Shown: one piece after another, positions 28,691-36,698 of the stretch | Numbering within the stretch: position 1 is the first letter of the stretch | Layout of the letters: each line of letters begins with the position of its first letter | DNA from: an uncultured Bacteroidota bacterium | GTDB taxonomy: Bacteria > CLD3 > SB21 | Length of the DNA stretch: 64,000 nt | Direction of reading: 5' to 3' | Assembly: GCA_964602985.1 (NCBI GenBank) | Contig: CAZRTJ010000014.1 | Coordinates: 33,356 to 97,355, forward strand | Translations under genes and position numbers: made by a program | Notes under the pieces: generated by a model | What the model saw: only the letters and a program-made list of their open reading frames with translations | Told to the model about the DNA's origin: nothing | The model's database searches: none

Positions 28691-30251
28691 GCGCGGACGC
28701 AACCCGGACGTGCTCACGTGCATCGCGAATCTCTCCAACGACGAAGTATTCACACCGCCTGAACTCGCCAACCGGATGCTCGACACGCTGGCCGAGGCAT
28801 GGGCGGCGAATAACAAGGGCGCAAATATCTGGGCGGACAAGACCGTGAAGTTCCTCGACCCCTGTACGAAGTCGGGCGTGTTCCTGCGCGAGATTACGAG
28901 CCGACTCAACAAAGGGCTGGAACAGGAGATTCCGAATCTGGAAAAGCGCGTGAACCACATCCTGACCAGGCAGGTCTTCGGCATCGGCATCACGCAGATC
29001 ACCAGCCTGCTCGCGCGGCGCAGTGTGTATTGCTCCAAGCACGCCACCGGCAAACACTCCGTCGCCAAATCGTTCGCCAGCGACGATGGCAATATCTGGT
29101 TCAAGCGCATTGAGCACACGTGGGGTGAAACCAAGTGCGAATTTTGTGGTGCGCCGAAAGTAATATTGGACCGTGAGGCAGGAGTTGAAAACTACGCCTA
29201 TCCGTTTATTCACACCGACAACATCAAGACTCGGCTCACCGAGATATTTGGAGGCAATATGCAATTCGATGTCATCATCGGGAATCCGCCGTATCAGATG
29301 AAGGGAGGCGCGGGCGGTTCAAGCGATTCATCCATCTTTCATTTGTTTGTCCAACAGGCGCTCAAACTAGAACCACGGTTTCTCAGCATGGTTATGCCAT
29401 CACGATGGATGGCCGGAGGACGAGGTCTAGATGAATTTCGAGCGCAGATGCTCTCCAGCGGACACGTTCGTTTCCTGACTGACTTCCCTGACTCCGGCGA
29501 AGCATTTCCCGGCGTTCAAATCAAAGGCGGCGTTTGCTACTTCCTTTGGGACAACTCGCACAATGGCCCATGCAACGTGACGCGGGTAGCTGGCGGTGTT
29601 GAGCATCTTCAACAGAACCGCGTGCTAGGTGAATTTGATGTTTTTGTGCGCGACGAACGAGCCGTTGGAATTCTCAGAAAGGTTCTCGCAAAAAAAGAAC
29701 CGTCAATTCTTGAGCTTGTCTCTGGCGACACGCCGTTTGGCATTGCGACCAATTTCGAGGAATGGAGCGAGAAACGCGGCGCAGGTTTGATAGTGCTACA
29801 CTTGATCCAAAAGGGCAAACGCACAGTCGGTTTCATGAAACGAGACGCCATCCGCAAGAACACCGCCGCGATTGATGCTTGGAAAGTGCTAGTGCCAGAA
29901 GCCTACGGTGCGGGCGAGACGTTTCCCCATCAAATTCTTGGCAAGGAAATCGTGGCAGCACCCCCATCCGCTTGCACTCAATCCTATCTCGTTGTTTCAC
30001 CCTTTCAGTCGGAGCGCGCGGCTCGAAGTTTTGCGAGCTACTACCGCACGCGGTTTTTCCGCTTTCTCGTGTCATTGCGAAAGATTACCCAACACGCACT
30101 GCGTTCAACTTACTCGTGGATTCCGCAGCAGGCTTGGAATCGAACGTGGACAGACGAACTGCTCTACAAGAAATACGGCATCACAAAGAAAGAGATTGAG
30201 TTCATCAACAGCATGATTCGTCCGATGGGCGAGAGCGAAAGCGATGAGTAA
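28611..30251 (+). CDS. N6-adenine DNA methyltransferase, gamma class (motifs X-I-IV: EVFTPP, DPCTKSGVFL, IIGNPPYQ) with C-terminal target-recognition region
   Basis: All three diagnostic amino-methyltransferase motifs are present in gamma order; 546 aa. Confidence 0.8.
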   Translation: MKKPSSSDPVSSPSTSPRETSQAQFTLRGRNPDVLTCIANLSNDEVFTPPELANRMLDTLAEAWAANNKGANIWADKTVKFLDPCTKSGVFLREITSRLNKGLEQEIPNLEKRVNHILTRQVFGIGITQITSLLARRSVYCSKHATGKHSVAKSFASDDGNIWFKRIEHTWGETKCEFCGAPKVILDREAGVENYAYPFIHTDNIKTRLTEIFGGNMQFDVIIGNPPYQMKGGAGGSSDSSIFHLFVQQALKLEPRFLSMVMPSRWMAGGRGLDEFRAQMLSSGHVRFLTDFPDSGEAFPGVQIKGGVCYFLWDNSHNGPCNVTRVAGGVEHLQQNRVLGEFDVFVRDERAVGILRKVLAKKEPSILELVSGDTPFGIATNFEEWSEKRGAGLIVLHLIQKGKRTVGFMKRDAIRKNTAAIDAWKVLVPEAYGAGETFPHQILGKEIVAAPPSACTQSYLVVSPFQSERAARSFASYYRTRFFRFLVSLRKITQHALRSTYSWIPQQAWNRTWTDELLYKKYGITKKEIEFINSMIRPMGESESDE

Positions 30252-30330
30252 GACCATCGAAGAAATCCTCGCACCGAAGCTGGAGACCGGGCCTCGAATG
30301 TACGCGTACTCGATCAGCGACAAGACACAT
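30244..30330 (+). repeat. copy 1 (diverged, ~85% identity) of the helicase-nuclease gene 5' end, truncated by the IS200-like element
   Basis: ATGAGTAAGACCATCGAAGAAATCCTCGCACCGAAG...TACGCGTACTCGATCAGCGACAAGACACA. The ATG overlaps the methyltransferase stop (ATGAGTAA). Confidence 0.75.
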
Positions 30331-34137: not shown

Positions 34138-36698
34138 GCAAACCCACCATCGACGAAATCCTTGCGCCCAAGCCGGAGGCCAGGCCTCGAATCTACGCCT
34201 ACTCGATCGACGACAAGGCACACGCGGGACTGCTCAAGGTGGGGCAGACCACGCGCGACGTCAAGCAGCGCGTCGCCGAGCAGGTCAAAACGGCTGCCAT
34301 CAAGAATTACAAAATCGAACTGGACGAACCCGCCGAGCGGGCCGATGGCACGACCTTCACCGATCATGAGGTGCGCGCCGCTCTCGTGCGGAAAGGCTTC
34401 GCCAATCCAGAACTGGAATGGATGCGGTGCACAGTTCAAGACGTAAAAACCGTTCTGACCGAACTTCGTACCGGCAGGAAATTTACAGGCACCCACTCCG
34501 AGACATTCGCGATGCGGCGGGAACAAACCGAGGCCGTCAACAAGACCCACGCCTATTTCCACTCCATCTGGAAGGAGGACATGCACGCCGTCCCGCGTTT
34601 CCTGTGGAACGCCAAAATGCGCTTCGGCAAGACCTTCACCACGTATCAGCTCGCCAAAAGACTCGGGGCCAAGCGTGTGCTGGTCGTTACCTTCAAACCT
34701 GCAGTGGAAGACGCCTGGCAGACGGACCTCGAATTTCACGTTGATTTCGACGGCTGGCAATATCAGTCGCGCCATTCGGATAGCGATCCGACGAAGGTCT
34801 CGGCCAAGAAACCGCTCGTCTATTTCGGTTCATTCCAGGATTTGCTGGGCCGTGACGATGCGGGAAACATCAAGGCCAAGAACGAATGGCTTCACAAGGT
34901 AAAGTGGGATCTGGTCGTATTCGATGAATATCACTTCGGGGCATGGCGCGAAACCGCCAAAGAATTGTTCGAAGGCGAGGAAGAGGCGGTCTCCAAGAAG
35001 GAGGCCAAGCTTGAGTACGGAATCGGCCTGGAAGACATAAACGAAGACCTCGGCGAACTATCGGAGAAGGAGACGGAGTTCCTGCCCATCATGACAAAGG
35101 CTTACCTTTACCTTTCGGGCACCCCGTTCAGGGCGCTGGCCACGGGCGAGTTCATCGAGGAGCAGATCTTCAACTGGACGTACACCGACGAGCAGCGCGC
35201 GAAGGAAGAGTTTGAGAATAAGAATCCCGGCAGTTGGAATCCCTACGGCGCGCTGCCGCAGATGCGGCTGCTTACCTATCAGATGCCGGATGAACTGCTG
35301 GCGATCGCGAGCGCCGGGGAATTTGACGAGTTTGACCTAAACGCTTTTTTTGAAGCCTCTGGCGAAAGAAACAAGGCACAGTTTCGACACAAAAGCGATG
35401 TACAGAAATGGCTGGATATCATCCGTGGTGCCTACGCGCCCAAGGCTGTTGAATTCCTTAAGACCGGTACGCGCCCGCCGTTCCCTTATTCGGACGTTCG
35501 CCTCTTGCCGTATCTCCAGCACGCGTTCTGGTTTCTGCCCAATGTCGCGGCGTGTCACGCCATGGCGAACCTGCTGGCGGAGAAGCACAACACATTTTGG
35601 CGCGAATACAAGGTCCTCATCGCGGCGGGTGCATCAGCCGGTATAGGTCTCGATGCTTTGCCTCCCGTACGTGCGGCTATCGGTAGCGGCTTTGACACCA
35701 AGACCATCACACTGTCCTGCGGCAAGCTCACGACAGGCGTCACCGTGCCGCAGTGGTCGCCCATTTTGATGCTGCGAAATCTCAAATCGCCGGAGACGTA
35801 TTTTCAGTCGGCGTTTCGCGTGCAGTCGCCCTGGTCCATCAACAATCCCAACGGCGACGACCCGAACGCGGAGGAAATTCTCAAGCCGGTTTGTTTCGTT
35901 TTCGATTTCGCTCCCACGCGCGCTTTAAGACAGCTCTCCGAATACGGCATCGGGCTTTCGCCCGGTGAACCGAACCCGGAGAACGCCGTTAGGGAGCTCG
36001 TGTCGTTCCTGCCCGTCCTGGCCTACGACGGCGCGAATATGGCGCAGCTCGACGCGGGAGGCATACTCGACATTGCGATGGCCGGCACCTCAGCCACACT
36101 GCTGGCACGAAAGTGGGAAAGCGCGCTGCTCGTGAACGTCGACAACGACACCTTGCGCCGCATCCTCGAAAACCCCGAGGCGATGGCTGCTGTGGAGCGA
36201 ATCGAAGGCTGGCGTTCGCTGGGCGACAACATCATCGAGACTATCATCAATAAGAGTGAGAAGATCAAAGCGCTCAAGAACAAGGCGAAGAAGAAGGACT
36301 TGTCGGCAAAGGAGATGAAGCAACTCACCGAAGAAGAGAAGGAGTTTAAGTCGAAGCGTAAGTTGGTGCAGGAAAAACTGATCAAGTTCGCCACGCGCAT
36401 CCCAGCCTTCATGTACCTCACAGACTTTCGCGAGAACACGCTTCAGGATGTCATCACAAAGATCGAACCTGATTTGTTCCTCACGGTGACAGGCCTGACG
36501 GTAAAGGATTTCCATTTGCTCGTGCGACTCAAGGTATTCAACACCGAGCAAATGAACCAAGCCGTGTTCGCGTTTCGACGGTACGAAGACGCGTCGCTTC
36601 GGTACACGGGCATAGATAGCCACCCGGGACTGACATACTACGGCCTGTACGACACAGTGATCGCGAGGGAAGATGCCCCGCCTTACGAGAACCGGTGA
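34134..36698 (+). CDS. GIY-YIG-like (T5orf172-type) nuclease domain fused to an SF2 helicase/translocase (type III Res-like), 854 aa
   Basis: N-terminus RIYAYSIDDKAHAGLLKVGQTTRDVKQRVAEQ (GIY-YIG/T5orf172 pattern). Helicase motif I NAKMRFGKTFT and motif II VVFDEYH (DExH). ATG overlaps the Fic stop (ATGA). Confidence 0.75.
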   Translation: MSKPTIDEILAPKPEARPRIYAYSIDDKAHAGLLKVGQTTRDVKQRVAEQVKTAAIKNYKIELDEPAERADGTTFTDHEVRAALVRKGFANPELEWMRCTVQDVKTVLTELRTGRKFTGTHSETFAMRREQTEAVNKTHAYFHSIWKEDMHAVPRFLWNAKMRFGKTFTTYQLAKRLGAKRVLVVTFKPAVEDAWQTDLEFHVDFDGWQYQSRHSDSDPTKVSAKKPLVYFGSFQDLLGRDDAGNIKAKNEWLHKVKWDLVVFDEYHFGAWRETAKELFEGEEEAVSKKEAKLEYGIGLEDINEDLGELSEKETEFLPIMTKAYLYLSGTPFRALATGEFIEEQIFNWTYTDEQRAKEEFENKNPGSWNPYGALPQMRLLTYQMPDELLAIASAGEFDEFDLNAFFEASGERNKAQFRHKSDVQKWLDIIRGAYAPKAVEFLKTGTRPPFPYSDVRLLPYLQHAFWFLPNVAACHAMANLLAEKHNTFWREYKVLIAAGASAGIGLDALPPVRAAIGSGFDTKTITLSCGKLTTGVTVPQWSPILMLRNLKSPETYFQSAFRVQSPWSINNPNGDDPNAEEILKPVCFVFDFAPTRALRQLSEYGIGLSPGEPNPENAVRELVSFLPVLAYDGANMAQLDAGGILDIAMAGTSATLLARKWESALLVNVDNDTLRRILENPEAMAAVERIEGWRSLGDNIIETIINKSEKIKALKNKAKKKDLSAKEMKQLTEEEKEFKSKRKLVQEKLIKFATRIPAFMYLTDFRENTLQDVITKIEPDLFLTVTGLTVKDFHLLVRLKVFNTEQMNQAVFAFRRYEDASLRYTGIDSHPGLTYYGLYDTVIAREDAPPYENR

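Follow-up and report, generated by a model that had tools for sequence, protein, structure and literature searches.

We analysed a stretch of 64,000 nt from an uncultured Bacteroidota bacterium (contig CAZRTJ010000014.1, positions 33,356 to 97,355; the whole stretch is called the window below), concentrating on a restriction–modification (RM)-like operon in which gene A, an N6-adenine methylase gene M and a helicase-nuclease gene H follow one another on the + strand. The start of gene H, its leader, recurs between M and H, with foreign genes and insertion sequence (IS) copies placed between the recurrences. We think it probable, with considerable reserve, that the leader copies are junction repeats, i.e. 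scars of serial insertion of foreign genes at the M/H stop/start junction, and that these insertions took place without a recombinase.

Leader copies and junction repeats in the window

The start of the helicase-nuclease gene was found five times, at 30244, 30999, 32226, 32981 and 34134, by direct reading as well as by mechanical repeat recovery. The original prediction had placed the starts at these same coordinates, and it was borne out by a profile of 69 related helicase starts, which has exactly five matches in the window with E-values from 6e-8 to 4e-61; the next match after the five has E=0.05. A 29-nt leader pattern with three or fewer mismatches recovered copies 2, 4 and 5, with 0 matches expected from shuffled sequences. 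On a numbering that follows the leader without the extra Pro codon, copies 1 and 3 extend from 1 to 88, copy 2 from 1 to 42 and copy 4 from 1 to 100; copy 5 is full length. An interpretation of copy 2 as a diverged leader reaching ~87 was rejected, as the profile search ends this copy at 42–45.

Copies 2, 4 and 5 had been described as near-identical and as sharing an upstream flank. Their mutual identity is indeed 90–95%, and each is preceded by a 16-nt flank, TCATTGAGAG(A/G)CCGTC, at 30983–30998, 32965–32980 and 34118–34133. This flank is a genuine 3′-end of the Fic gene: homologous ends were seen on Fic genes of two related loci (L037 and L062) with no IS nearby. The idea that the flank is a piece of the IS right end was rejected, since IS copies in other contexts end right past the last hairpin and have unrelated flanks; the IS-free Fic genes with the same terminal sequence also rule it out as a part of the IS. 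For copies 1 and 3 we found, in agreement with a predicted divergence of ~15%, 83–85% identity to copy 5 and to one another, which is similar to the divergence between leaders of unrelated genomes. Both are interrupted at one point, between GACAAGACACA and TGTTTCAGCGCC (TGTTTC side), by IS200-like copies. Copy 1 is decayed, with six replacements at residues otherwise conserved.

Each junction repeat in the window consists of ~16 nt of the 3′-end of the upstream gene and the first 43–103 nt of the helicase gene:

30228..30330, + strand: junction repeat 1, methylase 3′-end and leader copy 1 (ATG at 30244), to leader position 87
30983..31041, + strand: junction repeat 2, 16-nt upstream arm and leader copy 2 (ATG at 30999), to leader position 43
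32208..32312, + strand: junction repeat 3, Bro-N 3′-end and leader copy 3 (ATG at 32226), to leader position 87
32965..33083, + strand: junction repeat 4, 16-nt upstream arm and leader copy 4 (ATG at 32981), to leader position 103
34118..36698, + strand: junction repeat 5, Fic 3′-end and leader copy 5, continuing into gene H

The overlap between the stop codon of the preceding gene and the start codon of the leader is ATGAGTAA for the methylase, ATGAATAA for the Bro-N gene and ATGA for Fic. The short open reading frames (ORFs) that begin at the interrupted leaders end in a similar manner: the ORF of copy 2 (30999–31142) terminates on the ATGAGTAA that is the start of a Bro-N fragment, and that of copy 4 (32981–33109) terminates on the ATGA of Fic.

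Junction repeats in related loci

For comparison we used 80 genome loci (~1.1 Mb) from species across most bacterial phyla, with gene H 83–90% identical to the query. In 11 of the 80 loci, which belong to different phyla, two or three leader copies are present. The inserts between these leaders encode RhuM (L002, L015, L029, L041), Fic (L041, L062), VapBC (L004, L011, L030), a DUF1016/YhcG nuclease (L019) or unknown genes; an IS is the insert in L065, its remnant is found in L002, and L168 is an additional IS case. Pairwise alignment showed direct repeats, 68–95% identical, that bracket the inserts with matching extents on both sides, from 0–19 nt upstream of the ATG to +38...+155. Examples are the window's copies 4 and 5 (−16..+103; 92% identity over 119 nt), L019 (−19..+93), L168 (−17..+90) and L011 (−4..+155). 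The matching extents on both sides indicate that the repeats span the gene junction. The upstream arm is made of the last few codons of whichever gene precedes. As Fic, Bro-N and the DUF1016 gene of L019 read into the arm and use the stop embedded in the next leader, the 16-nt flank described above is the upstream arm of the repeat.

A search of related genomes for the boundary together with the leader had been proposed in the original prediction. The scars are not confined to the M/H junction. At the A/M junction we observed 10 insertions among ~60 loci, six of which duplicate ~14–68 nt of the methylase start. Unrelated type I operons show duplications too: in L169 the duplicated sequence is the ribosome-binding site together with ATGA, and in L170 it is ~65 nt from the beginning of hsdS, on both sides of a solo IS end. 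The same junctions are found unchanged in four phyla, e.g. RhuM at leader position 41–44, a sign that they are inherited stably and not switched often.

Embedded genes and duplications in the window

The genes and duplications located between A and H are as follows:

31135..31368, + strand: Bro-N 5′ fragment, 77 aa, ~75% DNA identity to the start of the full gene
31382..32233, + strand: Bro-N gene, 283 aa; PADLOC candidate PDC-S13, 411 bits, 6.5e-124
33106..34137, + strand: Fic gene with Fic and winged-helix domains, 343 aa; PADLOC SoFic, 141 bits, 1.3e-41
28338..28702, + strand: tandem duplication of ~180 nt in 94–100% identical blocks, comprising the 3′-end of the GxxExxY gene and the 5′ start of the methylase
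27972..28436, + strand: GxxExxY / PDDEXK_3 gene between gene A and the methylase, with inverted TCTCACGCG...CGCGTGAGA motifs on both sides

The domains detected in the locus are Eco57I methylase, Y1_Tnp, Bro-N, Fic with a helix-turn-helix, T5orf172 with ResIII, and GxxExxY; scans with Pfam, NCBIfam and PADLOC confirm the assignments made earlier from sequence alone. The Bro-N and Fic genes lie nested between M and H on the + strand and thus qualify as embedded genes. The locus was predicted to serve in defence, and this is supported: it is an RM-like operon with SoFic and PDC-S13 genes embedded in it. Equally, the suggestion that its effector slot was serially rebuilt has gained support, as the M–H region has been remade several times. 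What did not stand is the notion of alternative effector modules, each headed by a leader: the modules are complete genes located between repeats.

The Bro-N gene is preceded by an AGGAG ribosome-binding site of its own and stops within ATGAATAA; its last ~11–19 nt resemble methylase 3′-ends, matching those of L011 and L002. The Bro-N fragment, also called as a gene in an independent contig (L172), has a leader-like start, ATGAGTAAG, with GGTGACGA just before it. This start looks like a methylase-end/leader junction fused to Bro-N coding sequence. A fusion of the same type is seen in the DUF1016 gene of L037 (7734). The 77-aa fragment after copy 2 and gene A at 27105–27824 were both omitted from the original prediction. 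We also considered a decayed methylase 3′ fragment at 31042–31134, and set it aside as speculation after finding no significant match by blastn (against ~70 methylase ends) or by tblastn.

The duplication at 28338–28702 spans a junction and yet is empty, having no insert between its copies. Small indels in it make the first methylase start a frameshifted stub of 40 codons (28433–28555). The GxxExxY gene next to it is bounded, within 27843–28484, by the inverted TCTCACGCG / CGCGTGAGA motifs and by short ACGCGAAAAG-type repeats; the unit looks like a small mobile cassette inserted between A and M. Similar motifs adjoin the DUF1016 insert in L019 (2590–2690). Within the Fic gene, a perfect 12-nt tandem repeat, AATGTCCCTGTA, in 3.3 copies (33895–33934) encodes VPVN repeats in the linker between the Fic and winged-helix domains, and could vary in length through slippage.

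Open reading frame relay

From M to H there are nine consecutive ORFs on the same strand, with junctions of −8, −4, −8, +14 (the AGGAG site), −8, −4, −4 and −4 nt, so that seven of the eight are overlaps of 4 or 8 nt. The translational coupling claimed for each module in the original prediction agrees with these overlaps. The relay probably goes further than that claim, passing through both IS copies, in each of which a frame without stop codons runs from the interrupted leader to the next one:

30244..31002, + strand: stop-free frame of 252 codons from the ATG of copy 1 through IS element 1, in frame +1 relative to tnpA, ending at the TGA of the ATGA of copy 2
32226..32984, + strand: stop-free frame of 252 codons from the ATG of copy 3 through IS element 2, in frame +1 relative to tnpA, ending at the ATGA of copy 4

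Frames that cross an IS and end at the ATGA of the next gene were found in other A-M-H operons, at L065 2689–3834 (381 codons), in L087 and at L168 6001–7056, as well as in three type I operons: L169 6001–7308 (435 codons), L170 1436–2509 and L081 1710–3071 (L081-83). In the IS-derived non-coding sequence of L169 (748 nt) the through-frame has 0 stops versus 3 and 6 in the other two frames; in that of L065 (418 nt) the counts are 0 versus 4 and 7. Among predicted proteins, 25 clusters are through-frame fusions of this kind, some with DUF1016 or RhuM N-termini. About two-thirds of the related IS copies examined have no open frame, from which it follows that the open frame is not intrinsic to the IS family. 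It is present in all eight of the copies examined inside operons, and the contexts of the copies without it are ambiguous under simple ORF calling. The stubs and through-frames may well keep translation coupled across the inserts.

IS200-like elements

Two IS200-like elements are present between M and H:

30331..30982, + strand: IS200-like element 1, left end 30331–30428, tnpA 30429–30881, right end 30882–~30982
32313..32964, + strand: IS200-like element 2, tnpA 32411–32863

The 150-aa TnpA matches Pfam Y1_Tnp (3e-24) and the NCBIfam model transpos_IS200 (66.5 bits against a cut-off of 55); with the RAYT model NF047646 it scores 22.4 bits and does not reach the cut-off of 80. Its left end is an inverted copy of its right end, and three hairpins per end are kept across ~25 related copies. 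Both window copies have single ends and are bracketed by junction repeats of 45–107 nt. In the left flanks of ~20 copies no clear common motif was seen, and the exact termini are not fixed. We compared the family with 80 metagenomic relatives. Many of them sit in REP-like arrays, and such arrays occur in the related loci L099, L105, L100, L065 and L007; most of the relatives do not lie beside a leader, thus the IS is not leader-specific. In the ~1.1 Mb of helicase loci, the hairpins occur only at operon gene junctions, namely in L002 (twice), L007, L065 and L069.

A comparison of the two window elements revealed 32 identical nucleotides across the left joint, then five mismatches in 30 nt, then 485 identical nucleotides and, in the last ~140 nt, eight mismatches; the first 69 nt of the two interrupted stubs differ by ~20%. 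This mosaic pattern indicates gene conversion among copies that were older and had diverged separately. A connector resembling a Fic 3′-end lies between the IS right end and the leader in the window as well as in L087 and L168, which shows that the stub/IS/leader arrangement is, at least in part, an old haplotype that travelled with the operon. Additional solo units of the IS left end were observed directly before a downstream gene at L002 4000–4830, L007 2720–3670 and L169 7150–7310; in L002 the ATG of the methylase stands where that of tnpA would be, as though translation start signals came from the IS end.

Proposed mechanism of repeat formation

In the canonical A-M-H operon stops and starts overlap, as GTGA or ATGA at A/M and as ATGAGTAA or ATGAATAA at M/H; in insert-free relatives A overlaps M directly, and M and H overlap. 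Because the M stop overlaps the H start ATGAGTAA, an insert would spare both genes only if the junction were duplicated. Each inserted gene reads on into the upstream arm of the repeat that follows and terminates at the stop codon within the start of the next leader; the uninterrupted relay that results would preserve translational coupling and avoid polarity. The duplications might arise via host recombination or repair, for which several routes can be proposed. A tandem duplication spanning the junction could come first, with insertion into the redundant joint to follow; the empty duplication in the window favours this route. Repair of a staggered break with fill-in and DNA capture is another candidate, as are recombination between alleles bearing inserts at staggered sites and single-crossover integration of junction-carrying circles excised between repeats.

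Once formed, the repeats could act as short homology arms through which modules are gained, lost, converted and moved between operon copies, and such arms would work independently of divergent methylase alleles. The recombination signatures observed are mosaic stubs, IS cores 100% identical beside diverged ends, and stub/leader pairs with up to 95% identity within one locus; they support the earlier suggestion of recombination between the leaders, for which these are plausible substrates. Scans of the genes in 27.1–36.7 kb with Pfam, NCBIfam and PADLOC found no tyrosine or serine recombinases. One may go further and suppose that RM operons hold a recombinase-free cassette system, in which passengers and a specialised IS200/REP-like family enter junctions by duplicating them, the duplicate becoming a portable homology arm and a coupling adaptor, and in which the transposon has evolved to be ‘translationally transparent’, its frame free of stops along the whole element so that it could reside within operons and cause no polarity; this extension is speculative and we regard it as doubtful.

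Several observations weigh against repeats being scars of serial insertion. The step that would create the duplication is postulated from its products. No detectable repeat was found at L013 and L032, where a 113-aa gene is cleanly inserted, and in L037, where the DUF1016 gene takes over the ATG of the leader, the repeat has 9 nt only; duplication is therefore not obligatory. The stub ends cluster at ~42, ~52 and ~88, a pattern poorly explained by unguided events filtered solely by selection. The number of ‘independent’ cases is inflated by shared ancestry, as the connector common to the window, L087 and L168 illustrates. The IS family is present at these junctions far above chance, hinting at an active role. 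In the part of the through-frame that overlaps tnpA, absence of stops is only mildly improbable (probability ~0.1–0.2 under synonymous permutation), and translation of the stubs and through-frames is itself predicted from sequence.

Alternative explanations

The clustering of stub ends and the association of the IS with junctions keep alive the main rival explanation, which we nonetheless consider unlikely: that the IS200/REP-like element itself makes the repeats, through long target duplications of variable length or through a carried copy of the junction, and that the other modules were brought or shuffled by the element as hairpin-flanked cargo mobilised in trans. This would account for the restriction of hairpins to operon gene junctions in the ~1.1 Mb of related loci, for IS or solo-end units with duplicated junctions in three kinds of operon, for stub ends at 87–88 that recur with the IS and for IS remnants that adjoin RhuM and DUF1016 inserts (L002, L019, L087, L170, L081); related copies in REP-like arrays also fit it. 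Against this, the VapBC, Fic and RhuM inserts of L004, L011, L030, L029, L041 and L062 have repeats without IS hairpins. The repeats vary from 15 to ~170 nt in length, loci are not alike in the outermost nucleotides of the stub/IS joint, and most metagenomic members of the family are located outside leader contexts. In its simple form, with the leader as the terminal repeat of an element that duplicates its target (the case that the original prediction named as fatal to its own proposal), the explanation fails on non-IS inserts, which carry the same repeats. As is established for the family, IS200/IS605 transposition produces no target duplication. A different origin, quite unlikely in our opinion, is that the stubs are functionless debris: successive horizontal replacements of the operon's right part, joined by homology in H and illegitimately on the left, would leave 5′ stubs, with overlaps and open frames as by-products. 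In the same loci H is 84–90% conserved and M 50–79%, and recombination could anchor only in H; the right junctions of Fic and VapBC are conserved and the left ones variable, copies 1 and 3 differ from copy 5 as much as leaders of unrelated loci do, and 5′ fragments also exist for the Bro-N gene and the methylase start. Still, the repeats usually hold 10–19 nt upstream of the ATG that match on both sides, as expected from true junction duplication and not from a random left join, and for this reason we downgraded pure one-sided replacement as a main model. Debris would also leave unexplained the −4 or −8 overlaps at seven of eight window junctions and the frames of 250–435 codons that, in several types of operon, remain open through IS/REP sequence as far as an exact end on ATGA.

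Programmed cassette switching, proposed in the original prediction, would have recombination between leaders routinely swap, delete and amplify effector modules, varying the defence repertoire of the population. The length of the direct repeats suffices for RecA-dependent recombination (copies 4 and 5 over their 119 nt, the IS cores over 485 identical nt), short-read assembly breaks at the repeats, and the same module families appear in different orders across loci. We find this improbable all the same. IS200 TnpA is the only enzyme of the kind in the locus, where no site-specific recombinase or invertase was identified; the repeats have diverged (68–95% identity), and with copy 1 changed at conserved residues they have evidently not been kept homogenised; junctions have been passed on in identical form across phyla; no module is fused to the leader; and direct repeats permit deletion and duplication, not reversible switching. 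That the arrangement is an assembly artefact, produced by repeat expansion or by mis-joining across near-identical IS copies, is highly improbable. The 485-nt identical IS core is beyond short-read bridging, and so the order across the core rests on this assembly; exact-product look-ups for both tnpA genes, gene H and the through-frame of copy 1 gave nothing on record. On the other side, contigs L172 and L171 of an independent Logan assembly (SRR10064596) are 100% identical to 30930–32288 and 33020–34199, and hence the segments from the right end of IS element 1 through copy 2 and Bro-N to copy 3 and from copy 4 through Fic to copy 5 are not peculiar to this assembly. The five leader copies each have distinct flanks and sequence, and multi-copy arrays are present in 11 other assemblies. 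Serial insertion of foreign genes at the junction, with duplication of the junction, is the explanation we prefer.

Host operon A-M-H

The three genes of the host operon are separate, both in the window and in those related loci that were examined:

27105..27824, + strand: gene A, methyltransferase-N-like, 239 aa; Pfam MmeI_Mtase/N6_Mtase
28611..30251, + strand: gene M, Eco57I-type N6-adenine methylase, 546 aa; Eco57I domain 4e-32
34134-36698, + strand: gene H, intact, 854 aa; T5orf172/GIY-YIG at residues 21–110, SF2 helicase ResIII at 125–278

Gene A, with an S-adenosylmethionine-binding motif present and NPPY absent, is the conserved first gene of the operon, 70–85% identical and directly upstream of the methylase in ~60 related loci. 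In gene M, GNPPY is encoded at ~29283; its 546 aa compare with a usual 526 aa in relatives, and it is the right end of the GxxExxY insert that encodes the first ~20 aa. PADLOC REase_MTase_IIG, used as a test for a nuclease with an SF2 motor, gave a match of 4e-34. A single PADLOC model, that of a type IIG enzyme in fused form, covers both M (model residues 1000–1359) and H (156–797), by which we characterised the pair as a split helicase-methylase restriction-like system.

At least 8000 homologues of H were scored, and the best 120 of those are 87–90% identical; the named ones among these 120 come from Gemmatimonadota, Nitrospira, Chloroflexi and Verrucomicrobiota. Phyla in which the H protein is 84–90% identical include Firmicutes, Actinobacteria, Proteobacteria, Planctomycetes, Chloroflexi and Acidobacteria. 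M is only 50–79% identical in the same 80 loci, a divergence consistent with possible differences in specificity. The operon is found also on plasmids of Sphingopyxis, Rhizobium, Deinococcus and others. The nearest methylase alleles (92%) belong to operons that are compact and free of inserts, of which a conjugative element (with TrwC and TrwB) carries one and a primase/PIF1 element another; the operon of the window sits among ordinary chromosomal genes. The identity of H across phyla and plasmids implies that an unnamed system has spread horizontally, very recently and very widely.

Compared with the sequences of solved structures, H had no match. Counts from the promoter and terminator scans did not exceed the shuffled expectation, an Rfam scan of 26–38 kb returned no family at E<=0.1, and no tRNA genes were found in the window. 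Elsewhere in the window, an ORF of 2695 codons is located at 1415–9502 on the − strand.

Relation to known systems

The architecture is not as new as had been thought. Fic/Doc, RhuM, DUF1016-type nucleases and PIN toxins embedded in RM, BREX and Hma operons have been described (Anantharaman et al. 2013, PMC3710099; Payne et al., bioRxiv 10.1101/2024.01.29.577857), and the Discussion of Payne et al. states that the significance of embedding remains to be explored (bioRxiv 10.1101/2024.01.29.577857). As in those reports, the genes embedded here, SoFic and PDC-S13, are small and lie in the same orientation nested in a methylase-nuclease operon. In the portions of these publications that we consulted, what is presented is co-occurrence with no insertion footprint, unlike the duplicated junctions and overlapping stop/start codons seen here; the host, too, is different, an unnamed three-gene system. 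As far as we found in the literature searched, embedding is known and there is no description of the junction-repeat footprint, of the relay of overlapping ORFs or of a transposase-bearing IS open in one frame.

The nearest studied gene set is DnmA-YeeB-YeeC (PMC9973331), which combines T5orf172, a helicase and an MmeI-like methylase as the operon here does. With DnmA-YeeBC of Bacillus subtilis no restriction was seen (PMC9973331). Type ISP and IIG enzymes likewise bring together a methylase, an SF2 helicase-like motor and a nuclease, in a single polypeptide; here these are separate genes, T5orf172 is at the N-terminus of the helicase and gene A is added.

The window elements share with IS200/IS605 and RAYT/REPIN systems a 150-aa Y1 HUH transposase, hairpin-rich ends and relatives among palindrome arrays, and differ in having ends that are inverted copies with three hairpins each, duplicated junctions and a stop-free frame of full length. 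Rickettsia palindromic elements are mobile palindromic DNA tolerated inside translated sequence by means of one stop-free frame, as is the case here. In contrast to them, the alternative frame here crosses a transposase-bearing element and would join two genes by termination-reinitiation, and the protein would not be extended. Integron arrays have promoterless genes arranged head-to-tail, each followed by a repeated site, with expression from one end, as here; the locus differs from them in having no integrase (genes 27.1–36.7 kb), no folded site of the attC type, and repeats that are coding, imperfect and variable in length. In Rhs/CdiA orphan-cassette arrays of polymorphic toxins, a recurring segment runs in frame into alternative toxin ends; here the stubs stop before each module, and the modules are complete with their own starts. 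In synthetic bicistronic-design adaptors the stop of a short leader ORF overlaps the start of the target, making initiation independent of upstream context; the counterparts here are natural, derive from a truncated gene and have a putative function.

Embedding inside defence operons is now used for the discovery of immune systems. Junction repeats provide a readable footprint of gene entry into tightly overlapping operons, and they could be searched for systematically in order to date and count embedding events. The host operon deserves attention in itself, being unnamed and still ~85–90% identical across most bacterial phyla. If the stubs and through-IS frames do relay ribosomes, expression of the embedded genes would keep pace with that of the host system, the transposon would avoid polarity by means of one open frame, and nature would have reached the solution of the synthetic bicistronic adaptor.

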